A stretch of 32,000 bases of DNA from Kineococcus radiotolerans SRS30216 = ATCC BAA-149 (GTDB lineage: Bacteria; Actinomycetota; Actinomycetes; Actinomycetales; Kineococcaceae), in assembly GCF_000017305.1 (NCBI RefSeq), contig NC_009664.2, positions 120,001 to 152,000 of the forward strand, read 5' to 3'. Below the pieces are notes generated by a model, which had not been told where the DNA came from, made no database searches, and saw only the letters and a program-made list of their open reading frames with translations. A program made the position numbers and the translations under genes. The number at the start of each line of letters is the position of its first letter. Within the stretch, counting starts at the first letter, position 1. Of this stretch, positions 9,258 through 31,151 are shown piece by piece.

Positions 9258-9258
9258 G

Positions 9259-12909: not shown

Positions 12910-12935
12910 GCTCACCGACGACCTCGTCGGTGAGC
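12910..12935. promoter_or_regulatory. 26-bp near-perfect palindrome in the divergent ADH-operon / SorC intergenic region (operator or 5'-UTR hairpin)
   Basis: GCTCACCGACGA-CC-TCGTCGGTGAGC has 12-bp perfect arms. It lies 61-86 nt upstream of the ADH ATG (12849). Confidence 0.45.
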
Positions 12936-12993
12936 AGTCGTCCGAGCCCACGGCCACCGGCCTTCCCGGTGACCCTCTTCCGTGGTCTTCCGA

Positions 12994-13023
12994 ACGCTAG
13001 GACCTGTGCGGCACACTTGTCCA
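12994..13023 (-). promoter_or_regulatory. Candidate promoter of the polyol dehydrogenase/ABC operon
   Basis: On the minus strand: TGGACA (13023-13018), an 18-nt spacer, then TAGCGT (12999-12994), which fits the TANNNT -10. It sits in the lowest-GC part of the intergenic region. Confidence 0.3.
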
Positions 13024-13103
13024 GCACATGCGTGCAACGATCTGGTGACCGACCCGGCGATGGAGCCGCGCGGCCCGCAGCGGCACGCGCGAAAGGAGTG
13101 CAG

Positions 13104-14051: not shown

Positions 14052-14827
14052 ACCCGGACCCGATCGCGGACCCCTTCGACCTGACCGGCCGCCGCGCGCT
14101 GGTCACCGGCGCGACGCAGGGGATCGGCACCGACATCGCGCGCACCCTGGCCGGCGCCGGCTGCGACCTCGTGCTCACCGCCCGGGACCGCGAGGGCCTG
14201 GCGGCCCTGGCCCGTTCGGTGCGGGCCGACCACGGGGTCCGGGTGGAGGTCGTGCCCGCCGACCTCGCCGACGCCGCCGAGACCGAGGCCCTGGCGGCCT
14301 CGGCGCTGGCTGCGTTCGACGGGCTCGACGTCCTGGTCAACAACGCCGGGATCTCGGTGCCCCAGCGCGTGGTGGACGTCGACGCCACGACGTGGGACCT
14401 GGTGCTGGCGGTGAACCTGCGAGCCCCGGCGCTGCTGGGTTCGCGGATCGGGCGGGCGATGGCGCAGGCGGGGCGGGGCAGCATCGTCAACGTGTCCTCC
14501 GTCGCCGGTTCGCTGGCGCTGGCCGAGCACTTCTCCTACTGCGCGAGCAAGGCCGCGCTGATCATGGCGACGAAGGTGCTCGCCCTCGAACTGGGTCCCT
14601 CCGGTGTCCGCGCGAACTGCGTGAGCCCCACGGTGGTCATGACGGAGATGGGTCAGCGGGTGTGGGGCGAGGAGGCGAAGGCGGCGCCGTTGGTGGCACG
14701 GATCCCGCTGGGGCACTTCGCCCGACCCGCCGACGTCAGTCACGCCGTGCTGTTCCTGGCCGCTGACGCCTCGGCCATGGTGAACGGGGTGGACCTGAAG
14801 ATCGACGGCGGGTTCTCCGTCGCCTGA
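14048..14827 (+). CDS. Short-chain dehydrogenase/reductase, L-xylulose reductase (DCXR)-like
   Basis: GTG 14048 overlaps the SorC stop (GTGA). Motifs: TGATQGIG, NNAG and S..YCASK (YxxxK). The stretch ALELGPSGVRANCVSPTVVMTEMGQRVW....RIPLGHFA closely resembles the DCXR/L-xylulose reductase family as I remember it. Confidence 0.88.
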   Translation: MNPDPIADPFDLTGRRALVTGATQGIGTDIARTLAGAGCDLVLTARDREGLAALARSVRADHGVRVEVVPADLADAAETEALAASALAAFDGLDVLVNNAGISVPQRVVDVDATTWDLVLAVNLRAPALLGSRIGRAMAQAGRGSIVNVSSVAGSLALAEHFSYCASKAALIMATKVLALELGPSGVRANCVSPTVVMTEMGQRVWGEEAKAAPLVARIPLGHFARPADVSHAVLFLAADASAMVNGVDLKIDGGFSVA

Positions 14828-14970
14828 CGGCCGGTTCCAGACCGTCGAGCGGCCGCGGTCCGCTGCGCCAAGGGGTCGGAGCGGGCCGAGAGGACCTCCA
14901 GCGCGCCGACGACCTGCCCGCCTCCCCGGTCCCCCGTCCACCGGGCGCCCCGTCGAGGGCTCCGGGCACG

Positions 14971-16491
14971 TCAGACCCGGGTGCGGCGCTCCAGCGCGGA
15001 CAGCTGGTGCTGCAGCTCCGCGGTCGCCTCGTGCAGCGCCCGGTAGGCGGGGTACAACCCGGCGTAGATCTCCGCCGCTGCCGGATCGGGTTCCGTGGTG
15101 GACTCCACCCGGTTCCAGACCGCGTCCACGTCCACCGCGCCGAGGGCCACCGCGGCGAACTTCGCGTCCCCCAGCGAGGCCCCGATGCGCTCGGCCGGCA
15201 GGTCCTGCCGCAACCCGGTGACGTCGGTGACGATCTGCGGCCACAGCGGCGACCCGGTTCCGCCCCCGACCGCGACCACCCGGCGGATGTCGACCCCCGC
15301 GGCCCGCATCTCGTCGAGGTTGTGCCGCACGCCGAAGGCCGTCGCCTCCAGCAGGGCGCGGTCGACCTCGCCGCGGGTGGTGCGCAACGTGAGGCCCAGC
15401 AACGCTCCCCGTGCCTCGGCGTCGGCGAACGGCGTCCGCTCCCCCGCGAAGTACGGCAGGGCCACCAGCCCGTGCGCACCCGGGGGAACGGCAGCGGCCT
15501 CGGCGACGAGTTCACCCACGTCGGGGGCGCCGATGGTCTCGCGCCACCACTCCACGGCGCTGCCCGAGCTCGCCATGCCCGCCGCGAGCGTGCTCTGCCC
15601 CGGACGTACCCCGGCCGTCCCCCAGAGCGAGGGGTGGAACCGCGGGCCGTCGGTCACGGCGACGAAGAAGGTCGTCGACCCGTACATGACCATCAGGTCA
15701 CCGGGGCGGCCGACGTCGACGCTCTCCGCCTCGGCCCACGCGTCGCACGTCCCGGCCGCGACGGGCGTCCCGACGGGGATGCCGGTCGCGGCCGACGCCT
15801 CGGGGGTGACCGTCCCGACCCGTTCCGAGGGCCAGACCAGCCGGGGCATCGGCACCCCCGGCGCGATGCGGGCGCAGCGGTCCTCGATCCAGGCCATCTC
15901 GTGGCGGTCGTACAACGGGGTGCTCTGGCTGGCGGAGTGCCGGTCCAGCACGTACTCGCCGGTGAGCCGGAACACGAGGTAGGAGTTCGTCATGAAGAAG
16001 AAGCGCGCCCGGGCGAGGACGTCCGGCTCGTGCCGGCGCAGCCACTCGAGCTTGCCGCCGGCGGCCTGCGTCGACATGCGGGAACCGCAGCGGCGCAGCA
16101 GGTCGTGCGCTCCGTAACGTTCCTCCAGTTCGGCGGCCTCGACCACGGAGCGGGTGTCGACCCCGTACAGGATCGCCGGGCGCAGCGGACGACCGTGCTC
16201 GTCGGCGAGCAGGACCGTGGGACCGATCCCGCTGGCGCAGACCGCGGCGACGCGGCCCACCGCGACGTCGTCGGGGTCCGCGGCACGGGCGGTGAGTTCT
16301 CGCGAGATCGCGCGGAAGTCGTCCCACCACACCGCGTCGGCGTCGTGCTCGACGCGACCGGGACGAGGGTTGTCGGTGCGGTGCCGACGCGAGGCGCGCG
16401 CCAGGACCCGGCCGTCCAGCGTCGTCAGGACGCCCTTGCTGCTCCCGGTGCCGATGTCCACCCCGAGCAGCAGGTCACGATCTGGTAGCAC
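14971..16491 (-). CDS. FGGY-family carbohydrate kinase (xylulokinase / erythrulose-kinase-like)
   Basis: The N-terminal motif is LLLGVDIGTGSSKGVL and the C-terminal FGGY domain reads VVAVGGGTGSPLWPQIVTDVTG. The preferred start is GTG 16491, 8 nt after GAGGAGG. An alternative start is GTG 16521. Confidence 0.88.
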   Translation of the reverse strand: MLPDRDLLLGVDIGTGSSKGVLTTLDGRVLARASRRHRTDNPRPGRVEHDADAVWWDDFRAISRELTARAADPDDVAVGRVAAVCASGIGPTVLLADEHGRPLRPAILYGVDTRSVVEAAELEERYGAHDLLRRCGSRMSTQAAGGKLEWLRRHEPDVLARARFFFMTNSYLVFRLTGEYVLDRHSASQSTPLYDRHEMAWIEDRCARIAPGVPMPRLVWPSERVGTVTPEASAATGIPVGTPVAAGTCDAWAEAESVDVGRPGDLMVMYGSTTFFVAVTDGPRFHPSLWGTAGVRPGQSTLAAGMASSGSAVEWWRETIGAPDVGELVAEAAAVPPGAHGLVALPYFAGERTPFADAEARGALLGLTLRTTRGEVDRALLEATAFGVRHNLDEMRAAGVDIRRVVAVGGGTGSPLWPQIVTDVTGLRQDLPAERIGASLGDAKFAAVALGAVDVDAVWNRVESTTEPDPAAAEIYAGLYPAYRALHEATAELQHQLSALERRTRV

Positions 16492-16789
16492 TGCCCACGC
16501 CTCCTCGCGCCCGTCCTGCACCGCATCCTGTCACCCGTGCCGGGTGGGCAGGACGGCAGGACGCGACGCCAGGACCGGACCGACGAGGCCGGGGTCGACG
16601 GGCGGCGGTGGCCCCGCAGGAGGAGGCGCCCGCGCGCCACGGGCTGCGCCGGCGGGTGGTCCGGGCGTCCCCGCCCGCCACGTCCTCCGCGGGTCGGCCA
16701 CCCACGGCGTCCGGGGACCTCGGCGCGGTGCCACACCCCCGTCGGAGAGGAGCCGTCTCAGGGTGCCTGAGCCCGCCCTGCGCAGCTCC

Positions 16790-16929: not shown

Positions 16930-17514
16930 GTGCCTAGAGCCGGTCTCGACGCCGCCACCGTCACCCGCGCAGCCGCCGAGGTCGTCGACGACGTCGGTTA
17001 CGCCGGTCTCACGATGGGGCTGGTCGCGGACAGGCTCGGGGTGCGGGCGCCGTCCCTGTACAAGCACGTGGCGGGGCAGGCGGACTTGAGTCGCCGCATC
17101 GCGGTGCTGGCGGTCACCGAGATCGGCGACGCTCTGCGCGACGCCCTGCAGGGCAAGTCGGAGCGCCAGGCGCTCGAAGCCGCCGCCCACGCGACACGGC
17201 AGTACGCCCGGAACTTCCCCGGCCGCTTCGCGGCGACCCTCTACACCACGGCGACCGATCTCGAGGATCCGCTCCACCTCGCGTGGCTGCGGGTCATCGA
17301 ATCCCACTCGGCCATCCTGAGCGGGTACGAGATCCAGGAGGAGGACAGCCGGCACGCCCTGCAGATGCTCCGCAGCTTCCTGGACGGGTTCTCCCTGATC
17401 GAGCCGGCGGGAGACCTGCACACCGAGGACGAGATCGACGCCAGCTTCCGCTGGCTGATCGCCTTCATCGACCGCGGCCTCCGCGAACTGTCCGACCCGT
17501 CGCGCGGGGCGTAG
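16930..17514 (+). CDS. TetR/AcrR-family transcriptional regulator
   Basis: GTG 16930 has no obvious SD, so the transcript may be leaderless. The HTH reads AAAEVVDDVGYAGLTMGLVADRLGVRAPSLYKHVAGQADL. The helical C-terminal ligand domain resembles the WHG type. Confidence 0.85.
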   Translation: MPRAGLDAATVTRAAAEVVDDVGYAGLTMGLVADRLGVRAPSLYKHVAGQADLSRRIAVLAVTEIGDALRDALQGKSERQALEAAAHATRQYARNFPGRFAATLYTTATDLEDPLHLAWLRVIESHSAILSGYEIQEEDSRHALQMLRSFLDGFSLIEPAGDLHTEDEIDASFRWLIAFIDRGLRELSDPSRGA

Positions 17515-17878
17515 CCCGCACCCACCGGCGCGGCGGACGGGTGCTCGTCGCCCGTGGGTCGTCACGAGGGACAGCACGTGCGCGACGGGCTGTCCTCGGC
17601 GTGAACCGGCCACCGCACGCACCCGCGTCGAAGGCCGCCACGCGGAGCCCGGGAGCGGCACGTCGACGGACGACGGGCCGGCGACACCGCAGCGCCGCGG
17701 AGGTCCACGTCCGCGGCCGGAGCGTGCCGCTACAGCGCCGCAGGAACCCGCTCTCACGGGGCACGCGCGAGCACTCCCACCGACCTTGCCGGGATTCCCC
17801 GAGTGGGACTCCTCGGGGATGCGCGCGCCGGTGCGGGGCGGCCGCGTGCGAGCGGCGGAGGAGACCACCGGAAAAGGG

Positions 17879-17933
17879 TTGACACCTCCTGGCTACGATA
17901 AATAGCCTACGGATATGGCTACTAACGTTAGCC
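17879..17933 (+). promoter_or_regulatory. Promoter plus tandem operator palindromes upstream of the alpha/beta-hydrolase gene
   Basis: A perfect -35 TTGACA (17879-17884) is followed by an 18-nt spacer and TAGCCT (17903-17908). Two GGCTA-N7-TAGCC inverted repeats lie at 17891-17907 and 17917-33, centres 26 bp apart. The second also contains the perfect 10-bp palindrome CTAACGTTAG. Confidence 0.55.
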
Positions 17934-17988
17934 TGGCGCCGACACCGACACCCGCGGGACGGCGCCTCAGCAGACCGGAGGACTCACC

Positions 17989-18957
17989 ATGAGCAAGCCG
18001 TACACCGACGCAGGCGAGATCCCCGTCGACGAACCGCAGCCGGTCATGACCTACCACCCGGTCACGGTCGACGCCCCGGGCCGCCCCGTCCCCCTGCAGG
18101 TCAAGGTCTCCGTGCCCGCCACCGGCACCGACCTGCCGGTCATCCTCCTCTCCCACGGTCACGGCGCGTCGAACTTCCTGGCCTCCATGAAGGGTTACGC
18201 CCCGCTGGTCGAGTTCTGGGCCGCCCACGGTTTCGCCGTCATCCAGCCCACGCACCTCGACGCCAACGAGCTCGGCCTGCGCGACACCGACCTCCCGGAC
18301 GCGCCGCTCTTCTGGCACGACCGGGCGAGCGACATGAGCCACGTCCTCGACCACCTCGGCGACATCCAGGACCAGGTCCCCGGTCTCGCCGCCCGCGGGC
18401 TCGACGCCGGACGGGTCGCCGCCGTCGGCCACTCCCTGGGAGGCATGACCGTGGCCTCCCTGCTGGGCATGCAGGTCCAGGACCCTGCCGACCGACGCGC
18501 CAAGAACCTCTCCGACCCCCGCATCAAGGCCGGCGTCGTCATCGGCGCTCCCGGCGCGGGCCACGACCTCGCGGACTGGGCGCGCGAGAACTACCCGATC
18601 CTGCAGCACCTGGACTTCAGCACCATGACGGGCACGGGTCTCGTCATCGCCGGCGACGCGGACCTCAACCCGTTCTTCTCCGAGCGGATCAGCTACCGCT
18701 CCGACGCGTTCACCCTCAGCCCGGGGCCCGGCAAGACCCTCCTGACCTTCTTCGGAGCGGAGCACATCTACGGGGGCGTCTCCGGCTACGACGCGGGCGA
18801 GACGTCGGACGAGAACCCCGAACGGGTCGCCACCCTGCGGGCCCTCGTCTGGGCGTACCTGCGCAGCCGCCTCTTCGCCGGCGACCCCGCCTGGCAGAAC
18901 GCCGTCGACGCCCTCGGCAACGCCAAGCAGCCCCTGGCCGAGGTCGAGTCGAAGTAG
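17989..18957 (+). CDS. Alpha/beta hydrolase (dienelactone-hydrolase / chlorophyllase / PAF-acetylhydrolase-like fold)
   Basis: ATG 17989 lies 6 nt after GGAGGA (17977-17982). The nucleophile elbow is VGHSLGGMT. The candidate Asp is in VIAGDADL and the candidate His in FGAEHIYGG. Confidence 0.8.
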   Translation: MSKPYTDAGEIPVDEPQPVMTYHPVTVDAPGRPVPLQVKVSVPATGTDLPVILLSHGHGASNFLASMKGYAPLVEFWAAHGFAVIQPTHLDANELGLRDTDLPDAPLFWHDRASDMSHVLDHLGDIQDQVPGLAARGLDAGRVAAVGHSLGGMTVASLLGMQVQDPADRRAKNLSDPRIKAGVVIGAPGAGHDLADWARENYPILQHLDFSTMTGTGLVIAGDADLNPFFSERISYRSDAFTLSPGPGKTLLTFFGAEHIYGGVSGYDAGETSDENPERVATLRALVWAYLRSRLFAGDPAWQNAVDALGNAKQPLAEVESK

Positions 18958-18988
18958 CAGGCGCGCCGACCCGAGCTCACCCCGCCCC

Positions 18989-19023
18989 ACCTCGGGCGAC
19001 GGCCGACGGGGCGCCCCCGAGGT
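18989..19023. terminator. Hairpin between the convergent hydrolase and nitroreductase-family genes
   Basis: ACCTCGGG (18989-18996) pairs with CCCGAGGT (19016-19023), an 8-bp stem with a 19-nt GC-rich loop. There is no U-tract. Confidence 0.3.
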
Positions 19024-19111
19024 CGCCCACCACGACCGGGAGCGACCGTGCGGACCGCGTTCGCGGCGACCGCCGGCGCCGTCACCCGCCACTCGCCTCT
19101 CCGGGGAAACC

Positions 19112-19612
19112 TCAGGGCGCAGTGGGGGTGGTCGTGATCCGGAACACCGGGTGCTTGGGCCCGGCGGCCAGGAGTCGCGCGTCGCTCGCGTCGGCACCGA
19201 CCCCGTCGAAGAACATCCCCACCTCCCACGCCCAGCGGCGCAGGTACTCCCGCAGCAGCGGCGGCTTGTCCGCCTCGGGCACCTCCACCGCGGTGAAGGC
19301 CTGCGAGCGCCGGCCCCAGCGCAGCTCCCCCGCGCCCGCGGCACGCAGGTTGCGCACCCACTGCGTGTCGCCGCGAGGGGCCACGAGGTAGCGCACCCCG
19401 TCGATCGTGAGGGGGTTCACCGGAGTCGTGCGCCACTGCCCGCTGCTGCGTCCGCGCACGGCGAGGACGCGGGAGCCGGCCAACGGCAGTCCCAGACGTG
19501 TCGCGGCGGCCACCAGGGGGTTGAGCACGCGTCGGGTGAGCAGGTCCGGCGCGACGTAGCGCGGGACGGGGTTGCGAGCGGTGGTCTGGTAAGAGAGCAC
19601 TGATCTCGTCAT
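19112..19612 (-). CDS. Deazaflavin (F420H2)-dependent nitroreductase/quinone-reductase family protein (DDN-like, split beta-barrel)
   Basis: ATG 19612 gives MTRSVLSY. The core RVLAVRGRSSGQWRTTPVNPLTIDGVRYLVAPRGDTQWVRNLRAAGAGEL...REYLRRW matches the actinobacterial DDN/PF04075-type family. The RBS is weak, so the start is uncertain. Confidence 0.78.
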   Translation of the reverse strand: MTRSVLSYQTTARNPVPRYVAPDLLTRRVLNPLVAAATRLGLPLAGSRVLAVRGRSSGQWRTTPVNPLTIDGVRYLVAPRGDTQWVRNLRAAGAGELRWGRRSQAFTAVEVPEADKPPLLREYLRRWAWEVGMFFDGVGADASDARLLAAGPKHPVFRITTTPTAP

Positions 19613-19679
19613 GCGGTCCAGTGTGCACCCACCGGCGCACCCTGACAAGAGCGGTGCTCTCGAAAGAGAGCGTCGCTCT
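19593..19679. promoter_or_regulatory. Array of GAGAGC/GCTCTC half-sites in the divergent DDN-like / TetR intergenic region (candidate TetR operators)
   Basis: GAGAGCAC (19593-19600) is the reverse complement of GTGCTCTC (19654-19661). GCTCTC-GAAA-GAGAGC forms a palindrome at 19656-19671. AGAGCG-T-CGCTCT forms a palindrome at 19667-19679. Confidence 0.5.
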
Positions 19680-19700
19680 GGGCCGTGAGAGGATCAGGGC

Positions 19701-20378
19701 GTGCCTGCCGTCCCGACCGCCCGCGAGCGCGCCCGTCGCGAGCTCACCGCCGACATCCTGGCCGCCGCCCGGCGCCAGCTCGCCACGTCCGGCGCGGCCG
19801 CGCTGTCGGTGCGCGCCGTGGCCCGCGAGCTGGGCCTGGCCTCCTCCGCCCTCTACCGATACTTCGCCACGCGCGACGAACTGCTGACGGCGCTGATCGT
19901 GGAGGCCTACGACGACGTCGCCGATGCGGTCGAGGCCACGGTCGGTCCCCGGCGCGGGGCATCGCGCCGCACCCGCTTCACCGCCGCCTGCCGGGCGTTC
20001 CGGGCCTGGGCCCTGGAGCACCCCCACGAGTACGCCCTCATCCACGGCTCGCCCGTGCCCGGTTACCGGGGCGACGAGCGGACCACGGCGGCCGGCGCGC
20101 GGGTCCCGCTGGCCCTGCTGTCGGTGCTGGCGGGGATGGACGCTCCCGCGGACTCCCCGCGCCTGGCGCCGCAGGTGGCCGAGGGCGCGGCCCGTGTCGC
20201 CGCGGCGGGGGCCGGCGAGGTGCCCCCCGCCCTCATCGTCACCGCGGCCCAGTGCTGGACGGCCCTGCTGGGGCTGGTGAGCAGCGAGCTGTTCGGCCAG
20301 CTGGCGAACACCTTCGACCCGGCCGACGCCTTCGCCGACGCCACGATCGAGGCGCTCGCCGACCGCCTCGGCCTCTGA
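19701..20378 (+). CDS. TetR/AcrR-family transcriptional regulator
   Basis: GTG 19701 follows GAGAGGA. The HTH reads ILAAARRQLATSGAAALSVRAVARELGLASSALYRYFATRDELL. It is divergent from the DDN-like gene. Confidence 0.88.
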   Translation: MPAVPTARERARRELTADILAAARRQLATSGAAALSVRAVARELGLASSALYRYFATRDELLTALIVEAYDDVADAVEATVGPRRGASRRTRFTAACRAFRAWALEHPHEYALIHGSPVPGYRGDERTTAAGARVPLALLSVLAGMDAPADSPRLAPQVAEGAARVAAAGAGEVPPALIVTAAQCWTALLGLVSSELFGQLANTFDPADAFADATIEALADRLGL

Positions 20379-20509: not shown

Positions 20510-22150
20510 TCACGGGAGTCGGGCTGCGGTGCGCGGGTGCGGCGCCACCTCGGCGAGCAGCGCCAGCAGGGACCGGTCCTGGCCGTGCGGGGCCAGGACG
20601 CACAGGCCGACGGGCAGGTCCCCGACCCGTCCCCACGGCAGGTTCAGGGCGGGGACCCCGGTCTGGGAAGCGAGGGTTGTCAGCGGCAGCGTCCCGGCGC
20701 GCACGGCCTCGAACCGGTCGGGGGTCGCCTCGATCCGCGGCGCCGGGGTGGCGGTGCTCGGCAGGCACAGCCACCCACCGCGGAGAACCGCGGTCAGGCG
20801 CGCGCGGGTCGCCTCGATCGTGGTCCGCGCGGCGTTCAGGGTTTCCGCTCCGACGCCCTCCCCCGCCCGGAACCGTGCCTCCACCGCCGGGGAGAGGGCG
20901 CCGGGGTTGGCGGTGATGAACGCGCCGTGGCTGGCCCACGCCTCAGCCGCCTGGACCGTCCGGAAGGCGGTCGTCCAGGCGGTGACCTCCTCGCCGGTGA
21001 AGTCCACGCCGACGTCGTCGACGTCGCGCAGGGGCAGGCCCGTCTGCACGGCCAGCGCCCGCAGGGCCGCCTCCACCGCCAGCGCGGTGGCGGGCTCGGC
21101 CACCTGGAACAGGGTGCGGCTGCGCAGCAGGGCACGGGGCCGGGCGGGCGGGTGCGTCGGGCCCGTCAGCAGCGCCGCGGCGGCGACGGCGAGCACCCCG
21201 GCGTCCCGGGCGAGCAGGCCGACGGTGTCGAAGGTCGGGGCCAGGGGCAGAACCCCGGCGGCGTCCACGGCGCCGTGGGTCGGGCGCCAGGCGTAGAGCC
21301 CGCTGAAGGAGCCGGGTACGCGCAGCGAACCCGCCGTGTCGGTCCCCAGGCCCAGGTCGGCGGTTCCGGAGGCGACCGCTGCGGCGCAACCGGAGGACGA
21401 TCCGCCGGGCACCCGGCCGGGGGCGGCCGGGTTGGGCGGGACGCCGTGGTGGGCGTTGACGCCCAGGAGGGAGAAGGCCAGTTCGTCGGTCTGAGCGATC
21501 CCGGCGATCCCGGCGCCGGCGTCCAGCAGCGCCTGCAGCGCCGGGGCGTTCACCGGCTCGGTGCGCGCCTGCTCCAGCCACCGCGGCACCCCGCCGCCGG
21601 TGCGCTGCCCGGCGACGGCGACGAGGTCCTTGACCGCGACGCGGATCCCCGTCAGCGGCCCCGTCCCGGCCCCGGCGGGCAGGGCGGTGGCGCTGTCTGG
21701 GGTGCGCCAGGTGGTGGCGTCAGCGGGCGCGGCGCTCGCCGCGGCGCTCTCCCCGGCGGGCTGCCGGGCCGGTCCGGCCGGCGGGGCGCTGGAGACGTGC
21801 GCGGCGGTGATCCGCCAGCCGTGGGGCCCGCGGTGCCAGAACTGGGTCTGCAGGCCGCGTCCACCGTCGAGGCGCTCGGTCTCGGAGACGGTGAACGCGT
21901 CGTCGGCGGAGACGGCCCGCAGGTGCACCCGCCGGAGCCACCGCGTCGGAGCCCCACCGCGACCTCGCCGGAACGCGGAGATCTGGTCGTGCCCGACCAG
22001 CGCCGTCCCCCCTTCGGCGCGGACGGTCCGCGGTCCGGGGGCGAAGAGGGCGTCCAGCGCGTCGAGGTCGTCCTCGCGCAGGGCCCGCTCGTACCGCGCC
22101 GCCGCGGCCAGCAGGCCGCCTTCGTCGCCGTCGTCGCCGTCGTCGTGCAC
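20510..22150 (-). CDS. Fusion protein: N-terminal AtzH-like (DUF3225 / SnoaL-NTF2-like) domain plus C-terminal amidase-signature amidase
   Basis: The N-terminal ~125 aa read AAARYERALREDDLDALDALFAPGP..VRAEGGTALVGHDQISAFRRGRGG...WHRGPHGWRITAAHVS. The amidase part reads AVKDLV (Lys), GGSSSGCAAAVA (cis-Ser) and LGTDTAGSLRVPGSFSG (nucleophile Ser). The proposed start is GTG 22150, after GGGAAGAGGA, and is uncertain. Confidence 0.85.
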   Translation of the reverse strand: MHDDGDDGDEGGLLAAAARYERALREDDLDALDALFAPGPRTVRAEGGTALVGHDQISAFRRGRGGAPTRWLRRVHLRAVSADDAFTVSETERLDGGRGLQTQFWHRGPHGWRITAAHVSSAPPAGPARQPAGESAAASAAPADATTWRTPDSATALPAGAGTGPLTGIRVAVKDLVAVAGQRTGGGVPRWLEQARTEPVNAPALQALLDAGAGIAGIAQTDELAFSLLGVNAHHGVPPNPAAPGRVPGGSSSGCAAAVASGTADLGLGTDTAGSLRVPGSFSGLYAWRPTHGAVDAAGVLPLAPTFDTVGLLARDAGVLAVAAAALLTGPTHPPARPRALLRSRTLFQVAEPATALAVEAALRALAVQTGLPLRDVDDVGVDFTGEEVTAWTTAFRTVQAAEAWASHGAFITANPGALSPAVEARFRAGEGVGAETLNAARTTIEATRARLTAVLRGGWLCLPSTATPAPRIEATPDRFEAVRAGTLPLTTLASQTGVPALNLPWGRVGDLPVGLCVLAPHGQDRSLLALLAEVAPHPRTAARLP

Positions 22151-22244
22151 GTGTCCTCTTCCCTGTCGGCTCGGGGGTGAGCGCGGGTGGTGCCGGTCGG
22201 CCGGTGTCGATCGGTGCCGCCGAGGGGATCGTGGTGGGCGCACC

Positions 22245-23102
22245 TCAGTGCCGTTCGAGCTCCCTCAGCGCGTCGTGCGCCGCCGCCACCGCCCGCGTCC
22301 GGTCCTGACCGGGTCCGCTGCGCGAGGCGAGGACGCCCTCGGCCAGGACCGCCACGGTCATCATGACCGCGGCGTAGCTGTCGAAGGCTCCGGGACCCTC
22401 CACGGGGACGACGAGGCGGTGGGCCACCGGCACCGGCGGCGGAGCAGCGGCGGGGTCGGTGAGCAGGACGCAGGGGACGCCGAGGTCGGCGGCGAGCCTC
22501 ACCGCCGCCGACACCGTCGGGGTCCGGCGGCGGAAGCCCACGACGACGAGGACGTCGCGCTCGTCGAGCCCGGCGAGCTCCTCGGCGACGGTCTGCCCCG
22601 GCAGGGGGCCCACCGCCACGTCGGGCCGGGCCTGCACCAGCTGCTCGCGCAGGTGCAGCGCGACGGGGTAGCTGTTGCGCCAGCCGAGGACGAGGACCCG
22701 CCGGGCCCGCGCGAGGGCGGTGGTCACGGCGTCGAGGTCGGCGGCGGCCAGGGCCGACGCGGTGCGGGTGAGGTTCTCGACGTCGTGGGCGAGGTGGACC
22801 GCGACCGGTTCCCCGCCGCTGTCGGGCAGTCCCCCGGTGGGGACGCCGCGGGCGCGCGGTGAGCGGGCGCCGGTCCGGGCCTGGGCGTAGGAGGTGAAAC
22901 CGAGCCGGCGGAAGAACCGGCTGACCGTGGCCTTCGACGCCCCGGACGCCTCGGCCAGCTCCGCCCCGCTGTAGCCGGCGAGGTCGTCGGCGCGTTCGAG
23001 CACGAACCGGGCGACCTGCCGCTCGGCGGGGGTGAGGCGCGGCCACGCCGCGTCGACGCGCTCGCGCACGCCGCGGCCGGGGGAGGTCTCGGGGGCGGTC
23101 AC
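22245..23102 (-). CDS. RpiR/MurR-family transcriptional regulator (HTH_6 plus SIS domain)
   Basis: GTG 23102 overlaps the upstream stop (GTGA). The HTH reads LTPAERQVARFVLERADDLAGYSGAELAEASGASKATVSRFFRRLGF. A SIS-like C-terminal half is present (VLVLGWRNSYPVA...VVVGFRRRT). Confidence 0.88.
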   Translation of the reverse strand: MTAPETSPGRGVRERVDAAWPRLTPAERQVARFVLERADDLAGYSGAELAEASGASKATVSRFFRRLGFTSYAQARTGARSPRARGVPTGGLPDSGGEPVAVHLAHDVENLTRTASALAAADLDAVTTALARARRVLVLGWRNSYPVALHLREQLVQARPDVAVGPLPGQTVAEELAGLDERDVLVVVGFRRRTPTVSAAVRLAADLGVPCVLLTDPAAAPPPVPVAHRLVVPVEGPGAFDSYAAVMMTVAVLAEGVLASRSGPGQDRTRAVAAAHDALRELERH

Positions 23103-24361
23103 GGGCGGTGGGTGGCGGCGCGGCGGGTGGCGACGTCGAGGACGGCCGCCTCGAGCGCGTCGAGGCCGGTGGCGACGTCGGACAGCGTCACGCTCTCGGC
23201 GGGGGCGTGGCTGATGCCGTCCGCGCAGCGCACGAAGACCATGGCGACCGGGGTGATGGCGGCGACGGCCATCGCGTCGTGCCCGGCCCGCGACCAGATC
23301 CGCAGCGGATCGGCGTCACCGGTGGCGGCGATCCCGGCCACCACCGACGCCGTCAGGTCCGCGTCGCAGTAGACCCCGGCGGCGCGGTGGGTCTCGGCCA
23401 GCTCGAACCCGAGCCCGCGGGCGGTGCAGAGCCGTCGGGCGTCCGCCGCGATCGCCTCGACCAGCGCGTCGCGCTCCCCGTCGTGCTCGGCGCGGACGTC
23501 GAGGGAGAACTCCACGAGACCGGGGACGACGTTCACGCCCCCGGGGTGGGCCTGGAGGCGGCCGACGGTGGCGATCCCGCCGCGTTCGACGGCGAGGCGT
23601 TCGACGGCCAGCACCACCTCGGAGGCGCCCACGAGGGCGTCGCGCCGCTTCGGGTAGGGGGTGCCGCCGGCGTGGCGGGCCTCGCCGACGACGCGGCCGG
23701 TGAAGCGGCGGGCCCCGGCGATGGAGGTGACCACCCCGAGGGGACGGTCGGCGGCCTCCAGGTGCGGGCCCTGCTCGATGTGCAGCTCCAGGTAGCCGAC
23801 GAGGTCCTCGGGCCGCCGCGCGGCCTCGGTGATCCGGGCGGGGTCCAGGCCGAACGCCGCGGCGGCTTCCCGCACGGTCGTCCCGGCGTCGTCCGCGCGG
23901 TCCCACCACTCCTCGCGCCAGGCGCCGGCGACGGCGGAACTGCCCATCAGGGCGGTGGAGAACCGGGTGCCCTCCTCGTCGGAGAACGCGACGACCTCCA
24001 GCGCGAACGGGAGTTCCGCCGCGCGCGGGGCGAGGCGGCCGGCGACCTCGATCGCGGTGAGGACCCCGAGGACGCCGTCGTAGCGGCCGGCGTCGGTGAC
24101 GGTGTCCAGGTGCGAACCCAGCACGAGCGCGGGCAGGCCGGGGGCGTTCCCCTCCAGCCGGCCCCACTGGTTGCCGGCCTGGTCGCGCCAGGTGCGCATC
24201 CCGGCCCCGGCCATCCACCGGGCCGCCACCTCGTTGGCCCTCGCGTGCTCGGGCGAGAGGTGGACCCGCTCGACGCCGCCCTCGAGCGCCGAGACGGCGG
24301 CGAGCTCGTCGCACCGGTCCAGGACCCGCTGCGCGTCGCGCCGGGCGTCGGAGGTGCTCAC
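23099..24361 (-). CDS. allC: Allantoate amidohydrolase (M20 family; AllC/PucF-like Zn/Mn hydrolase)
   Basis: GTG 24361 overlaps the aminotransferase stop (GTGA). The protein is collinear by eye with E. coli AllC: GSHLDTVTDAGRYDGVLGV, VVAFSDEEGTRF, ELHIEQGPHLE, HAGGTPYPKRRDA, VNVVPG, SRAGHDAM and GISHAPAE. N-carbamoyl-amino-acid hydrolase cannot be fully excluded without a tree. Confidence 0.85.
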   Translation of the reverse strand: MSTSDARRDAQRVLDRCDELAAVSALEGGVERVHLSPEHARANEVAARWMAGAGMRTWRDQAGNQWGRLEGNAPGLPALVLGSHLDTVTDAGRYDGVLGVLTAIEVAGRLAPRAAELPFALEVVAFSDEEGTRFSTALMGSSAVAGAWREEWWDRADDAGTTVREAAAAFGLDPARITEAARRPEDLVGYLELHIEQGPHLEAADRPLGVVTSIAGARRFTGRVVGEARHAGGTPYPKRRDALVGASEVVLAVERLAVERGGIATVGRLQAHPGGVNVVPGLVEFSLDVRAEHDGERDALVEAIAADARRLCTARGLGFELAETHRAAGVYCDADLTASVVAGIAATGDADPLRIWSRAGHDAMAVAAITPVAMVFVRCADGISHAPAESVTLSDVATGLDALEAAVLDVATRRAATHRP

Positions 24362-25647
24362 GCGTAGACCTCCTGCGCCGCCGCGGTTCCCGCTCCGGCT
24401 TCGACGGGCGCGCCGTGGCGGCGCAGGACCTGCTCGAGGGCGGCGAGGGTGACCAGGACGGCGTCCTTGCGGGCGTTGTACCCCATCGTCCCGATGCGCC
24501 AGACCCGTCCGGCCAGGGGCCCGAAACTGGTTCCGATCTCGATGCCGTAGTCGTGCAGGAGTTCGGCGCGCACGGCGTCCCCGTCGATCCCGGAGGGGAT
24601 CTCGACGGCCACGACGTTGTGCATCTTGTGCTCCACGTCGCCGAACACCGCGAGTCCCAGCCCGCGAACCCCTGCCAGCATCGCCTCGCCGTGCCGGCGG
24701 TGGCGGGCGACGGTCGCGTCCAGCCCCTCCTCCAGGACCAGCCGCGCGCACTCGCGAGCGCCGTACAGCATCGTGGTGGCCTCGGTGTGGTGGTTCAGGC
24801 GCTCCTCGCCCCAGTAGTCGAGGATCATCGCGAGGTCGAAGTAGTTGGAGCGGATGCGCAGCCCCGCCGGGGCGGTGTCCTCCGCCGAGGCGGGGTCGGC
24901 GCGCAGGCCCGCCTCGACGCTGCGGCGCGCTTCGATCACCGCCACGGCGCGCGGGGACAGCGAGATCGGGGCGCTGCCGGAAGGGCCGCCGAGGCACTTC
25001 TGCAGCCCGGCGGTGGCGACGTCGACCTCCCAGGCGTCCATCTCGAACGGGTTCCCGGCGAGGGATGCCGTGCAGTCGACGTAGAGCAGGGCGCCGTGCC
25101 GGTGACACATCCGGCCCACGCCCTCCAGGGGCTGGTTCATCGTGGTGGAGGTGTCGCCCTGGACGAGCGCGACGAGCTTCGGCTGCACCTCGCGCACCGC
25201 GTCCTCGAGGGCCTCGAGGGTGAACACCTGCCCCCACGGAACCTCGCGGACGTGGACGTCGGCGCCGCAGCGCTCGGCGATCTCGCGCAGCAGGTGGCCG
25301 AAGCGGCCGAAGACGGGGACGAGGACGCGGTCGCCGGGGACGATGAGCGAGACCAGCGCGGCTTCGATGCCGGCGCGGGAGGTGCCGTCGACGAGCAGGG
25401 TCGCCGCGTTGGTGGTGCGGAAGACCGCGCGGTAGAGGGCTTGGGTCTCGTTCATGTACGCGGTCATGGCCGGGTCGTACTGGCCGACGAGCTGGGCGGA
25501 CATGGCGCGCAGGACCCGGGGGTCCACGGTGATGGGGCCCGGCCCCATGAGCAGCCGCGGCGGTGGGGCGATCGGGGCCGCGACGGAGGTGCGCAGGAGG
25601 GACGGGTCCACCGCCGGGTTCTGGATCGACTGTTCCACACTGGTCAT
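24358..25647 (-). CDS. Class-V aminotransferase of the alanine/serine-glyoxylate family (PucG-like, candidate (S)-ureidoglycine-glyoxylate aminotransferase)
   Basis: ATG 25647 gives MTSVEQS and lies 10 nt after GGAG. Motifs: LMGPGPITVDPRVLRAM, VQGDTSTT and the PLP lysine motif AGLQKCLGGPSG. It is located between allantoinase and allantoate amidohydrolase. Confidence 0.85.
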   Translation of the reverse strand: MTSVEQSIQNPAVDPSLLRTSVAAPIAPPPRLLMGPGPITVDPRVLRAMSAQLVGQYDPAMTAYMNETQALYRAVFRTTNAATLLVDGTSRAGIEAALVSLIVPGDRVLVPVFGRFGHLLREIAERCGADVHVREVPWGQVFTLEALEDAVREVQPKLVALVQGDTSTTMNQPLEGVGRMCHRHGALLYVDCTASLAGNPFEMDAWEVDVATAGLQKCLGGPSGSAPISLSPRAVAVIEARRSVEAGLRADPASAEDTAPAGLRIRSNYFDLAMILDYWGEERLNHHTEATTMLYGARECARLVLEEGLDATVARHRRHGEAMLAGVRGLGLAVFGDVEHKMHNVVAVEIPSGIDGDAVRAELLHDYGIEIGTSFGPLAGRVWRIGTMGYNARKDAVLVTLAALEQVLRRHGAPVEAGAGTAAAQEVYA

Positions 25648-25763: not shown

Positions 25764-27266
25764 TCAGGGGCGCTCGCGGGCCGGGGCGTGCAGCAGTTCC
25801 CCCCGGGGTTCGCCCTCCAGGTCGATCCGGTTCCCCCGCAACCACGTCGAACGCACCGCGCCGGTGAACCGCCGCCCCTCGTAGGGCGTCACCGCGTTGC
25901 GGTGGTGCAGGGACCGCGCGTCGACGACCCACTCCTCCTCCGGCGCGAACACCGCGAAGTCCGCGACGTTGCCCACCGCGATGCGCCCCCGGTCGCGCAG
26001 ACCGGCCAGGTCCGCCGTCGCCGACGCCATCCACCCCACCACCGTCTCCAACCCCACCCCGCGCGAGCGGGCCGCGGTCCACACCGCGGGGAGCCCCAGC
26101 TGCACGGAGGCGATCCCGCCCCAGGCGATCCCGAAGTCGCCCTCCTCCAGCCGCTTCAGCTCCACGGTGCACGGGGAGTGGTCCGAGACCACGCAGTCGA
26201 TCGTGCCGTCGAGCAAGCCGGCCCACAGCGCGTCCTGCTCGGCGCGGTCGCGGATCGGCGGGCAGCACTTGAACGAGGTGTCCCCGTCGGGGACGGCGCC
26301 GGCGTCCAGGGTCAGGTAGTGCGGGCACGTCTCCGCGCTCAGGCGGGTCCCCGCGGCCTTGGCCGCGGCGACCTCGGCCAGCCCCGCGGCCGAGGACAGG
26401 TGCACCACGTGGGCCCGCGCCCCGGCGCGGGCGGCGGCCTCCGCGAGCGCCCGCACCGCACGGGCCTCCGCGCTCGGCGGGCGCGAGGCCACGAAGTCGG
26501 CGAAGCTCCGGCCCCCGGGGTGGGCGTGGGCGTCGATCTCCTCGGCGTCCTCGGCGTGGGCCAGCAGCAGGCCGTCGAAGCGGGCCAGTTCGGCCAGCGC
26601 CACCGCCAGGCCGGCGGCGTCCAGCGGGGGGAACTCCGCCACGCCGGAGTCGAGCAGGAAGCACTTCACCCCGAACACCCCCGCCGCGTGCAGCGGAGCG
26701 AGCTGGTCGGCGTTGCCGGGCACGGCGCCACCCCAGAACCCCACGTCGACCGTGCACTGCCCCGCCGCCGCGGCCCGCTTCACCGCGAGCGCGGCCGGGT
26801 CGAGGGTGGCGGGGACGCTGTTCAGCGGCATGTCCAGGATGGTCGTGATGCCCCCGGCGGCCGCGGCACGGGTCGCGGAGGCGAAACCCTCCCACTCGGT
26901 GCGGCCCGGTTCGTTGACGTGGACGTGGGTGTCCACCAGCCCCGGCAGCAGCACCTCGTCCTCAGCCAGGACGACCTCGCGCGCGGCCGCCCAGGGGTGC
27001 TCGAACGCCTCCACGGCGACGATCCGCCCCTCCCGCACCGCCACGGACACCGCCCGCGTCGCACCGTCCACCACGGCCCGCGCCGCCCGCAGCACCACGT
27101 CCGCCCGCGGTCCGCCCCCAACCGCCGGCACCACGTCGCCCGACCCGCCGTCCACCACGCCCTCCACCCTTCCTCCGGTCAGCACACCTCGTTCGACGTC
27201 CGGCGGGCTCCACCACGGCGGCCCGCCGGGCCGCGCGTCGAGGTCCCCCGTGGTCCGCCGGGTCAC
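25764..27266 (-). CDS. allB: Allantoinase (cyclic amidohydrolase)
   Basis: PGLVDTHVHVNEPGRTEWEGFASATRAAAAGGITTILDMPLNSVPAT is a near-textbook AllB metal motif. The start is placed at GTG 27266 because it overlaps the XdhC stop (GTGA) and the next 24 codons all end in G/C. Alternative internal starts are GTG 27167 and GTG 27158, after GGAGGAAGG. Confidence 0.85.
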   Translation of the reverse strand: MTRRTTGDLDARPGGPPWWSPPDVERGVLTGGRVEGVVDGGSGDVVPAVGGGPRADVVLRAARAVVDGATRAVSVAVREGRIVAVEAFEHPWAAAREVVLAEDEVLLPGLVDTHVHVNEPGRTEWEGFASATRAAAAGGITTILDMPLNSVPATLDPAALAVKRAAAAGQCTVDVGFWGGAVPGNADQLAPLHAAGVFGVKCFLLDSGVAEFPPLDAAGLAVALAELARFDGLLLAHAEDAEEIDAHAHPGGRSFADFVASRPPSAEARAVRALAEAAARAGARAHVVHLSSAAGLAEVAAAKAAGTRLSAETCPHYLTLDAGAVPDGDTSFKCCPPIRDRAEQDALWAGLLDGTIDCVVSDHSPCTVELKRLEEGDFGIAWGGIASVQLGLPAVWTAARSRGVGLETVVGWMASATADLAGLRDRGRIAVGNVADFAVFAPEEEWVVDARSLHHRNAVTPYEGRRFTGAVRSTWLRGNRIDLEGEPRGELLHAPARERP

Positions 27267-28408
27267 GAGCAACGACGCACCTGCGGGACGATCAACGGAA
27301 CCGGGGTGTCCGCGCGGTGGATCGGACCCGCGCTGCGGCTCAGACGCGCCCCGCTCCCCCCGTGCCGGTGCGCGATGATCTCCGCGACGATGGACACGGC
27401 GGTCTCCTCCGGGGTCCGTGCTCCGAGGTCCAGACCGAGGGGCGAGGACAACCGCTCCAGCTGCTCAGCCCGCACCCCCGCCGCGGCCAGCCGGGACAGG
27501 CGATCCCGATGGGTTCGTCGCGACCCCAGGGCGCCCACGTAGCCGGCGGGCCCGCGCAGCGCCTCCTCCAGCAGGGGGACGTCGAACTTCTCGTCGTGGG
27601 TGAGGACGCACACGACGGTGCGCTCGTCGACGGCGGTGGCGCGCAGGTACGCGGCCGGCCACTGCACGACCACCTCGTCCGCGTCCGGGAACCGGGCTCG
27701 GGTGGCGAACAGGCCCCGCGCGTCGCAGACGGTCACGTGGTAGCCGAGGAACTTCGCCAGCCGCGTCAGCGCCCCCGCGGGCTCGACCGCCCCGAACACC
27801 AGCAGGCGCGGCGGCGGGGCGACCACCTCGAGGAAGACGTCCACCTCGTCGTACCGGCCGTCCGCGCACCCCACCGGCCGCGGTGCACCGCTGTCACCGC
27901 GGCGCAGCGCCGCGCGGGCCGCCGCCTCCACGCTCCGGTCGAGGTCCGCGTCGCCGAGGGTTCCCGCGGTGCCCGCCGCGTCCACCAGCAGGGTGCGGCC
28001 CAGCCGCGCGCTGCCCGCCGGGCCGACGACGGTGGCCAGGACCGTCGCCCGCCCACCGGCCTCGGCCTCGACGGCCCGGCGCAGCAGGTCGCCGTCCGCG
28101 ACCGTGAACGGGCGGACCAGGACGTCGAGGGCGCCGCCGCAGGTCAGGCCCACGGCGAAGGGGTCGTCGTCCACCCCGAACCGCTCGGTGCGGGAACGCC
28201 CGTCCTCCAGGGTCAGGCGGCACAGCTCGTACACCGCCCCCTCGACGCAGCCGCCGGACACGCTGCCGACCACCGCACCGTCCGCGGTCACGACCAGGGA
28301 GGCTCCCGCCGGGCGCGGCGCGGACCCCTCGACGCGGAACACCGTCGCCACGGCGAAGGGTTCGCCCCCGGCCAGCAACCCCCGCAGTTGCGGGAAGACC
28401 TCACGCAC
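27263..28408 (-). CDS. xdhC: XdhC/CoxI-family molybdenum-cofactor insertion chaperone for xanthine dehydrogenase
   Basis: GTG 28408 overlaps the stop of the Mo subunit (GTGCGTGA). The N-terminal XdhC_CoxI motif is [37 protein letters not shown]. The C-terminal Rossmann-like domain reads [30 protein letters not shown]. Confidence 0.9.
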
Positions 28409-31151
28409 GGTCGGCCGCCTCGGCCAGCGCGCGCCAGACGCGGTCCGGGCGCATCGGCAACCTCCGCAGCCGCACCCCGACGGCGTCGCGCACCGCGTTG
28501 GCCAGAGCGGGAGCGACGGGGTTGTAGGGCGCTTCGCTCATCGACTTCGCCCCCAGCGGGCCCACCGCGTCGACGGTGTCGGCGAACAGAACCTCCGTCG
28601 TCCCCAGGTCGGCGGCCCGCGGGGCGTGGTACTCCCGCAACGACACCGTGAGGGGGCTGCCGTCGTCGGCGCGGTGCACCTCCTCGAACAGGGCCGACCC
28701 GATGGCCTGCGCGACCCCGCCCTCGACCTGCCCGCGCAACTGCACGGGGTTGAGGACGACCCCCGCGTCGACGGCGTGCACCGACCGCAGGATCCGCACC
28801 TCGCCGGTGCTGGTGTCCACGGCGACGCGGAAACCCTGGACGTTGAACGCGACGGAACGCAGTGCGGCGTCGTCGGCCCCGTCGGCCCGCGGCGCGGCGC
28901 CCGCGGTGCGCACCGCGTGGGCGTGGACGTCGCTCAGCGGGACGGAGCGCGGCCCGCACCGCACCCCCTCCGGTTCCAACACGACCGTCGCCGGGTCCGC
29001 GCCGAGCAGGTCGGCGCCCAGCGCCCGCACCTGCCCCGCGAGGCGCTCGCAGGCGATGAGCAGCGCCTTGCCGGCGACGACGGAACCGGCCGAGCCGAAC
29101 GCCCCGGTGTCGTGGCCGGTGACGTCGGTGTCGGCCTGCCGCAACCGCAGCCGGTCGGCGGTGGTGCTCAGGGCGTGCACGCCGATCTGGGTGTGGACGG
29201 TCGTCGTGCCGTTGCCGAACTCCGCGGTTCCGACGTTCAGCTCCCACGTCCCGTCGGCCAGCAGGCGGGCGGAGGCCTCCGCGAAGTGCCCGCGCGGGGG
29301 CACGGTGGCGATCATCGACAGCGCGATCCCGGACCCGGTGCGCCAGCCGGGCCCGTCGGGGACGGGGTCACCGCCGCGCGGGAGTTCCCGCTCCACCAGG
29401 TCCAGGCACTGGTCCAGGCCGTAGCTGCCGAAGCGCAGACCGTCGTCCTCGCCGGTGACGGCGGGGTCGGAGGTGGCGACGAACCGGTCGCCGGGGACGA
29501 CGACGTTCCTGCGGCGCACCGTGAACGGGTCGATCCCGAGTTCGCGGGCCAGGTCGTCCAGCGCCGATTCGAGGGCGAAGACGACCTGGCCCAGGCCGTA
29601 CCCCCGGAAGGCGCCGGAGGGGACGGAGTTCGTGTAGACCGCGCGGGCGTCGACGCGCTTGTTCGCGCACCGGTACGTCGCCACCGACTCGTGCACGGAG
29701 TGGAACATCACCCCCGGGGAGTGGTTGCCGTAGGCGCCGGCGTCGGAGAGCAGGTCCACCGCCAGCGCCGTCAGGGTGCCGTCCGCCGTGGCGCCCAGAC
29801 GCACCCGCACGTCCATCGGGTGCCGCGTCGGCAACGCCGTGAGCGCCTCGCGGCGGGTCGTCTCGTACTGCACGGGCCGGCCGGTGCGCAGCACCGCGAG
29901 GGCGACGAGGTCCTCGGTGAGCATCTCCTGCTTGCCGCCGAAACCCCCGCCGACGCGGGCGGCCAGCACCCGCACCCGCGCGCGGTCCAGGCCGAGGACC
30001 CGGGCGAGCTCGTCGCGCACGAGGAACGGCACCTGGGTGCTGCTGCGCACCACCAGCCGTCCCTCCTCGTCCAGCCAGCCGACCGCGGCGTGGGTCTCCA
30101 GCGCGACGTGGGCGACGCGCTGGGTGCGCCAGGTCCCCTCGACGACGGCGTGGGCGGAGGCCAGGGCCTCCTCGACGTCGCCGACCTCGCTGTGCAGCTC
30201 GGCGACCAGGTTGCGCGCGGGGTCCGCGATGCGGCTGTCGGCGTCCTTGTCGGCGTGCAGCAGCGGCGCACCGGGAGCGGTGGCCCGGTGCGGGTCCAGG
30301 ACGGCGGGCAGCACCTCGTACTCCACGGCGATCAGCCCCAGCGCCTCCTCGGCGAGCGCCACTGACTCGGCGACGGCCACCGCGACCCGCTGGCCGTGGT
30401 GGCGCAGGACGGGGTCGAGGACGAGGGTGTCGTCGGGGTCGTCGAGGCGGTTCTGGTGGCGACCGGTGGAGAACAGCACCGGCGGTGCGTCGTGGTGGGT
30501 CAGCACGAGGTGCACGCCGGGCAGCGCGGCGGCGGCGCGGGTGTCGATGGCGGTGACGCGGGCGTGCGCGTGCGGGCTGCGCAGGACCGCGGCGTGCAGC
30601 AACCCCGCCGGAACGTCGCCCTCGGCGAGGTCGAGGGTGTACGGCTCGGTGCCGGTGACGACGCGGTGCGCGGCCGGCGCCGCGACGGCCTCGCCGATCC
30701 CCCCGCTGCGGGCGAGCGCGGGCAGGGTCTGTCCGCCCGCCGCCTCGCGGACCGCGCGGTACCCGGTGCAGCGGCACAGGTTGCCCTTGAGGTGCTCGTC
30801 GAGGTCGGCGCGCTGCTCCTCGTCCAGCGCCGCGGCGGTGACGACCATCCCCGGCGTGCAGAACCCGCACTGGAACCCGGCCGCGTCCACGAAGCGCTGC
30901 TGCACCGGGTGCAGGCTCCCCGCCGGGGCCAGGCCCGCGGCGGTGGTGACCTCCCGGTCGCCCGCGCGCAGCGCGGGGTACAGGCACGAGTGCACCGGGG
31001 AACCGTCCACGAGCACCGTGCAGGCCCCGCAGTCCCCGGTGTCGCAGCCCTTCTTCACCGTCGTCCCGGCGTTCTCGCGCAGCAGGGTCCGCAGGCACTG
31101 CCCCGGCCGCGGCTCCACCTCGGCGGCCACCCCGTCCACGGTGAGCTTCAC
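28401..31151 (-). CDS. Xanthine-dehydrogenase-family protein: fused [2Fe-2S] small-subunit domain plus molybdopterin-binding large subunit
   Basis: GTG 31151 overlaps the FAD-subunit stop (GTGA). The ferredoxin-like cluster is [12 protein letters not shown] and the second cluster is [11 protein letters not shown]...CRCTGY. These continue without a stop into the Mo domain ([33 protein letters not shown]). Total length is 916 aa. Confidence 0.9.

Follow-up and report, generated by a model that had tools for sequence, protein, structure and literature searches.

Introduction

PucG passes the amine of ureidoglycine to glyoxylate, yielding glycine and oxalurate. This PucG/HpxJ route leaves two purine nitrogens in oxalurate; for the enzyme of the hydrolytic step, annotation goes no further than 'putative'. 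The supplement of PMC3560190 lists hpxY, hpxZ, hpxX and hpxW of Klebsiella oxytoca (EU884423) as annotated for oxalurate conversion, with HpxY marked putative, and gives the neighbouring hpxU as a regulator that is also of the RpiR type. HpxW is cited in PMC5270733 as a characterised oxamate amidohydrolase (PDB 5HFT). AtzH has a substrate pocket of Tyr22, Arg46 and further Arg and Gln residues; a carbamate-decarboxylase role has been proposed for AtzH/HpxZ, and the known substrate is too unstable for direct assay (PMC6219798).

Here we describe a gene of Kineococcus radiotolerans SRS30216 that joins an AtzH/HpxZ-like domain to an amidase-signature domain in one chain. The stretch analysed, referred to as the window, comprises 32,000 nucleotides (positions 120,001 to 152,000 of NC_009664.2); loci with L numbers are regions retrieved from this and other genomes.

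Results

A purine gene cluster expected to yield oxalurate

The fusion gene lies at the end of a series of purine-related genes on the minus strand:

20510 to 22150, minus strand: predicted oxalurate amidohydrolase, a fusion of an AtzH/HpxZ-like domain (aa 15-121) with a PRK08310-like amidase-signature domain (aa ~158-535), 546 aa
21788 to 22108, minus strand: AtzH/HpxZ-like NTF2-fold domain of the fusion (alignment to 6BJT, pocket residues as listed in PMC6219798)
20546 to 21679, minus strand: amidase-signature domain of the fusion, with triad K174, cis-S251 and nucleophile S275 (profiles, alignment, structure match)
22245 to 23102, minus strand: RpiR/MurR-family regulator (Pfam)
23099 to 24361, minus strand: allantoate amidohydrolase of the ureidoglycine-forming AllC/HpxK/PucF type (NF006775, 491.7 bits, cut-off 479)
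24358 to 25647, minus strand: oxalurate-producing ureidoglycine-glyoxylate aminotransferase PucG/HpxJ (3NNK 576 bits, PucG 3ISL 456, next match 305)
25764 to 27101, minus strand: allantoinase AllB (TIGR03178, 552.6 bits, cut-off 357.85; start uncertain, slightly upstream of 27101)
27263 to 28408, minus strand: XdhC molybdenum-cofactor chaperone (profile matches)
28401 to 31151, minus strand: xanthine-dehydrogenase-like FeS and Mo subunit (score under that required for the XdhA equivalog; role assigned from context)
31148 to 32000, minus strand: xanthine-dehydrogenase-like FAD subunit (gene start 26 nt outside the window)

The best match of the aminotransferase, 3NNK, is the Klebsiella ureidoglycine-glyoxylate aminotransferase. 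An earlier note on this DNA had described a co-directional operon of XDH, XdhC, allantoinase, a PucG-like enzyme, allantoate amidohydrolase and RpiR. The gene identities and the shared strand hold; a single transcript is unsupported, as pucG, allC and rpiR overlap by GTGA but the other gaps in the cluster are of about 95-160 nt. A promoter and terminator scan detected no sites. The spacing of 94 nt between rpiR and the fusion is too short for a 62-aa AtzG/HpxX-type gene, and no hpxX-like gene was seen at the locus. Just past window position 32000 (L010:2029-12661) are genes for two PucR regulators, uricase, HIU hydrolase, OHCU decarboxylase, an NCS1 permease, two nucleoside-deaminase-family proteins, a MobA-like transferase and an NtaA/DmoA-family FMN monooxygenase; an adenosine-deaminase-like ORF was noted there by inspection only.

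The statement that the window holds no ureidoglycine aminohydrolase or ureidoglycolate lyase extends to the whole genome, which is 100% complete: AllE, AllA, AllD-family proteins and AllG were not found in it, with positive controls. Given the established chemistry of PucG, the pathway is therefore expected to yield oxalurate. A search for allantoicase gave no match in the source genome and none in any control genome, so that its negative outcome carries no information. Neither an AtzE/HpxY-type amidase nor AllFGH was found in the source genome, which carries a urease and an allophanate hydrolase with a urea-carboxylase-like neighbour (the neighbour by inspection only).

Another group of co-directional genes (L010:12883-20000), one of which matches the nitrilase family, appears to resemble the nitrogen-starvation clusters of the MSMEG_0565-0572 type. 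Downstream of the fusion (window 16930-20378) are two TetR-regulated pairs, one with an alpha/beta hydrolase and one with an F420-dependent quinone reductase family gene, and window 8373-16521 holds, by inspection, genes for a sugar ABC transporter that have no relation to the fusion, together with dehydrogenase and kinase genes. A second M20 hydrolase (L115:7667-8890, plus strand; NCBIfam 'allantoate amidohydrolase', 607 bits, cut-off 372) adjoins an N-methyl-amino-acid-oxidase-like gene, far from the purine genes.

The fusion protein retains the amidase triad and most AtzH pocket residues

The gene is a single ORF, as previously noted, and runs on the minus strand from a GTG start at 22150, preceded by an AGAGGA ribosome-binding site, to a stop at 20510; its product has 546 residues plus the stop codon rather than 547. 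A 547-aa ORF on the plus strand (20537-22180) was rejected as an antisense shadow, because it failed a codon-bias screen and all homology lies on the minus strand. The proposed joining of an AtzH-type domain to a complete amidase-signature domain is borne out by Pfam, by the residues and by an AlphaFold model. The AtzH-like family PF11533 matches aa 15-121 with 80.8 bits and the Amidase family PF01425 matches aa 158-529 with 163 bits, both above the Pfam cut-off of 27, so that the protein belongs to both families. The Lys / cis-Ser / Ser triad corresponds to K174, S251 and S275, which are kept in 77, 78 and 78 of 78 homologues respectively.

The N-terminal domain matches the AtzH-like structures 2RCD, 6BJT and 2OWP. 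Alignment to 6BJT shows that eight of the nine pocket residues of AtzH are kept: Y22, R46, R63, R66, R73, R96, Q106 and Q108 correspond to Y20, R44, R61, R64, R70, R93, Q101 and Q103 of the fusion, and each is conserved in at least 76 of the 78 homologues. The sole difference is F94 of AtzH, which is T91 in the fusion and T or S among its homologues. With a nearly invariant triad and a pocket kept to this degree, both domains look to be under selection. The AlphaFold model, for which the alignment of 78 sequences served as input, has high confidence in each of the two domains (pLDDT 93.7, pTM 0.93). A Foldseek search with it returned amidase-signature enzymes at E ~1e-26, with malonamidase E2 at the top and all amidase-signature enzymes scoring about equally.

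The acidic N-terminus is encoded by two copies of a 9-nt unit. Residues 1-10 have a mean pLDDT of 60 and the N-termini of homologues are short and variable; the repeat therefore looks incidental and was rejected as a functional feature. The nearest database protein, at 97% identity, is also from Kineococcus radiotolerans, and further matches come from Kineococcus, Kribbella, Streptomyces, Nocardia, Sanguibacter and Subtercola, among others. A tblastn search of a plasmid collection with the amidase domain gave no match at E 1e-40.

The amidase falls outside the AtzE/HpxY family

The best family for the amidase domain is by far the PRK08310 amidase (NF006169), at 365.2 bits just under the NCBIfam cut-off of 391. 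The scores for AtzE/HpxY (TIGR02715, 136.6 bits, cut-off 425.75; NF006631, 143.4 bits, cut-off 461), for the allophanate hydrolase AtzF (TIGR02713, 126 bits, cut-off 511) and for GatA (TIGR00132, 134 bits, cut-off 481) place it outside each of these families, and the same genome has a separate true AtzF and a separate gatCAB locus. The N-terminal domain reaches 72.3 bits with the HpxZ equivalog NF033625 and so lies below its cut-off of 135. In the amidase tree (FastTree, SH-like support only) the fusion falls among PRK08310 members and away from AtzF and GatA, and the actinobacterial amidases form one well-supported clade, most of whose members have the N-terminal AtzH-like domain.

The amidase follows the oxalurate-forming enzyme across the order

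Among 401 genomes of the order of the source organism, 95 carry the fusion or its amidase and 76 carry PucG/HpxJ. Every one of the 76 genomes with PucG also has the amidase, at a distance of 10 kb or less in 63 of them, although these genomes are related and do not represent 76 independent events. Within genera the amidase and PucG are equally patchy (22/26, 8/17, 3/23, 2/6, 3/8 and 1/6), and this matching patchiness in several genera indicates that no single lineage accounts for the link. As a control, allantoinase is over its cut-off in 17 of the 44 genomes that have neither amidase nor PucG, so the amidase tracks the oxalurate-forming step specifically and not purine use in general. Nineteen genomes of the order have the amidase and no pucG.

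Neighbours were labelled by tblastn at 89 actinobacterial loci, comprising 74 intact fusions, 13 amidases without the AtzH domain and two split genes. Both pucG and allC are near the amidase at 51 of these loci, 41 of which also have fmdA, and the typical gene order is allB-fmdA-fusion-pucG-allC. The association with pucG and allC anticipated in the earlier note thus stands, but an exclusive link to purine genes does not, in view of the second cluster described below. Two Kineococcus strains, SYSU DK006 and DK003, have two copies of the fusion each; the DK006 copy that adjoins fmdA (L004:10001-11519) is interrupted near residue 102, where the reading frame changes.

An FmdA-family gene usually stands in the place of hpxW in actinobacteria

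The operon-type FmdA/AmdA-family gene is present in 82 genomes, 79 of which also carry the amidase. It occurs in 66 of the 76 PucG genomes, as against all 76 for the amidase, and the source genome is among the ten without it; there the operon-type fmdA is lost and a more distant paralogue only is present. The only GGT of the source genome scores 92 bits with HpxW (5HFT) versus 668 with 6J3A, its best match, and so is no HpxW orthologue. On these genomic associations, the FmdA/AmdA subfamily (such as the gene at L001:5376-6395, minus strand, with members at some 50 further loci) is a candidate non-homologous oxamate amidohydrolase in the place of HpxW. Five loci from the Kineococcus family (L046, L047, L048, L107, L108) have neither the AtzH domain nor the operon-type fmdA and retain amidase, pucG and allC. 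An FmdA paralogue with an apparent twin-arginine signal (L110:6883-8139, minus strand) lies beside histidine-utilisation genes, and paralogues scoring like it occur in Kineococcus genomes without pucG.

Unfused relatives in Proteobacteria

Of 301 proteobacterial genomes, 29 were found to carry PRK08310 amidases without a fused domain. Five of the 32 loci lie beside pucG and allC, and the other 27 have no pucG nearby. At four of those five (L134, L136, L139, L143) a GGT-family gene is directly downstream of the amidase, forming rpiR-amidase-GGT-pucG-allC clusters; the one GGT compared with the PDB, from L143, has the oxamate amidohydrolase HpxW (5HFT) as its best match. Searches of the five genomes in which the amidase adjoins pucG/allC gave neither an AtzE/HpxY over the cut-off nor an AtzH-like gene. 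In gene content, these clusters are the Klebsiella hpx layout with a PRK08310 amidase apparently replacing hpxXYZ. At three other loci an unfused atzH-like gene adjoins the amidase; the one tested (L133) overlaps the amidase gene and scores 196 bits with HpxZ, over the cut-off of 135. The neighbours of most other proteobacterial copies are uninformative, and the wider PRK08310 family may therefore be functionally mixed.

A second cluster unrelated to purine genes

At 21 of the 89 actinobacterial loci the fusion is beside an isochorismatase-family gene; of the 19 genomes that have the amidase but no pucG, 12 show this arrangement. The usual genes of this second cluster (L019, L020, L022, L028, L050-L055, L069 and L105; L133 in Proteobacteria) encode a creatininase, a cupin, an FAD-binding oxidoreductase (FAD_binding_4), a cytosine-deaminase-like amidohydrolase, an MBL-fold protein and an ABC transporter. 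Frequent additions are a gene of the flavin reductase/PNPOx type and fmdA, the latter within 10 kb at 7 of the 21 loci, and the proteobacterial L133 and L141 have an HpxW-like GGT family gene. In the amidase tree the purine and second contexts are interleaved, each occurs in both major subclades, and the second-context copies of Kineococcus nest among purine-linked ones. The simplest reading would be one activity serving two upstream pathways.

The isochorismatase is under the cut-offs for both BiuH (121 versus 370 bits) and RutB (117 versus 378 bits), and was rejected as a member of either family. We also rejected the second cluster as the lumazine pathway of Cupriavidus, as the paper on that pathway mentions no amidase, creatininase, isochorismatase or cupin. 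No description of a creatininase/isochorismatase/cupin cluster was found in the open-access papers searched.

Discussion

Proposed reaction and alternatives

We propose that the fusion probably converts oxalurate to oxamate, CO2 and NH3. Oxalurate was also the substrate suggested in the earlier note, and it remains a predicted one, favoured by comparative genomics through the amidase in all 76 PucG genomes and the missing AllE, AllA, AllD and AllG. Guanine deaminase, XDH, uricase, HIU hydrolase, OHCU decarboxylase, AllB and AllC would take purines to ureidoglycine, and PucG, its known chemistry being applied by homology, would combine this with glyoxylate to give glycine and oxalurate. Oxalurate resembles 1-carboxybiuret minus one NH. 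By analogy with AtzE acting on 1-carboxybiuret, Ser275 would attack the terminal ureido carbonyl of oxalurate, releasing NH3 and leaving N-carboxy-oxamate; by analogy with AtzH, the fused domain would then accelerate the decarboxylation of N-carboxy-oxamate to oxamate and CO2. We give this two-step route about an even chance. The AtzH-like domain would be accessory, since several relatives are without it, which fits a step that also occurs spontaneously. Where an FmdA-family gene is adjacent, as in most actinobacteria, its product would convert oxamate to oxalate and NH3, the task of HpxW. The universal presence of the amidase in PucG genomes as against the incomplete presence of FmdA, together with the proteobacterial pairing of amidase and HpxW-like gene, points to the amidase acting first and HpxW or FmdA second. 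Contrary to what had been suggested, the step is probably not the terminal one: the oxamate formed would require a further amidohydrolase, either HpxW or the neighbouring FmdA-family enzyme.

Some observations weigh against the oxalurate reading: 27 of the 32 proteobacterial loci have no pucG nearby, 19 genomes of the order have the amidase and no pucG, and the source genome has neither an HpxW orthologue nor the operon-type fmdA to take oxamate further. The second cluster bears on the breadth of this activity. The enzyme could be a broader N-carbamoyl or acyl-urea hydrolase of the biuret, carboxybiuret or ureido type, with its main role beside creatininase and isochorismatase and recruited next to purine genes, in which case oxalurate would not be its physiological substrate. 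The number of second-type loci, the 19 genomes with amidase and no pucG, the mixing of contexts in both major subclades with the nested Kineococcus copies, and an isochorismatase that resembles RutB and BiuH, if below both cut-offs, fit such a role; but the strict retention of the amidase with PucG and not with AllB speaks for oxalurate, and the fmdA or HpxW-like GGT genes of the second cluster suggest convergence on the same oxalyl product, so that we regard the broader role as unlikely. As a more tentative extension of the oxalurate reading, a PRK08310-like amidase, with or without AtzH, and an FmdA-family enzyme might together form a second, non-orthologous oxalurate-to-oxalate module, which would serve purine breakdown and also an undescribed N-heterocycle pathway made up of the deaminase-like amidohydrolase, FAD oxidoreductase, creatininase, cupin and RutB/BiuH-like hydrolase, with substrates possibly of pterin type, converging on oxalurate or a close oxalyl-ureide.

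Other alternatives keep the purine setting and change the chemistry. The order of the two hydrolases might be reversed, with the fusion hydrolysing oxamate and oxalurate being left to FmdA or some other enzyme: malonamidase E2, the top structural match, acts on the C3 homologue of oxamate, and the source genome has no HpxW orthologue. This is quite unlikely, however, as four proteobacterial clusters place the amidase directly beside an HpxW-like GGT with no HpxY found there, 10 of the 76 PucG genomes do without FmdA and none does without the amidase, and oxamate hydrolysis would give a decarboxylating AtzH-like domain no role. A direct acyl-urea cleavage of oxalurate to oxalate and urea, followed by urease or urea carboxylase, would suit a genome with urease, an allophanate hydrolase beside a urea-carboxylase-like gene and no clear oxamate hydrolase; we consider it improbable to a high degree, for it accounts neither for the conservation of the AtzH pocket nor for the recurrent pairing with genes of HpxW-like or FmdA type. 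That pairing is equally unaccounted for if the fusion acts upstream, with ureidoglycine or the carbamate from the AllC reaction as its substrate, and so substitutes for the AllE that was not found. Although the gene always travels with allC/pucG, ureidoglycine is already consumed by PucG and no AllA or AllD was found for the use of ureidoglycolate, and we attach only the slightest probability to such a role.

If the oxalurate assignment is true, three groups without an assigned function would receive one at once, namely the amidases of PRK08310 type, the AtzH-like domain of the fusion and one subfamily of FmdA, and the recovery of purine nitrogen would be completed in 76 of the 401 genomes sampled from the order, about a fifth. 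Furthermore, a single-chain fusion with a stable, purchasable substrate offers an easier test of the carbamate-decarboxylase role of AtzH/HpxZ.

Comparison with known systems

The step had been taken for an undescribed one, which does not hold: hpxY and hpxZ of Klebsiella are already annotated (putatively) for the same conversion, and NCBIfam names the family NF033625 'oxalurate catabolism protein HpxZ'. The oxalurate-to-oxamate reaction has thus been proposed before; what is new is the non-orthologous amidase, its fusion to an HpxZ-like domain, the exchange of FmdA for HpxW and the reuse in a second cluster, for which we found no description in the open-access papers searched.

The oxamic transcarbamylase AllFGH of E. 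coli (PMC11326118) also turns oxalurate into oxamate, but is phosphorolytic, anaerobic and built of unrelated proteins, and its AllG was not found in the source genome. AtzEG and AtzH of the cyanuric-acid pathway of Pseudomonas sp. ADP (PMC6219798) share with the fusion the same two folds, eight of nine pocket residues and an analogous predicted deamination followed by decarboxylation; in contrast, they are separate proteins acting on carboxybiuret and dicarboxyurea, the fusion has about 26% structural-alignment identity to AtzE, and its locus is without cyanuric-acid genes. NCBIfam PRK08310 (NF006169) is the best family match, and its unfused proteobacterial members share the pucG/allC/HpxW-like context, whereas the actinobacterial members form their own, mostly AtzH-fused clade and the fusion, at 365 bits, is under the cut-off of 391. 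The closest system is hpxWXYZ of Klebsiella, where an amidase-signature enzyme and an AtzH/DUF3225 protein likewise stand beside hpxJ/pucG, hpxK/allC and an RpiR gene, and the same reaction is predicted. The separate HpxY of Klebsiella is here replaced by an amidase outside the AtzE/HpxY family (137-143 bits; cut-offs 426 and 461) and fused to the HpxZ-like domain, hpxX has no visible counterpart at the fusion locus, and the usual actinobacterial neighbour is fmdA instead of hpxW.
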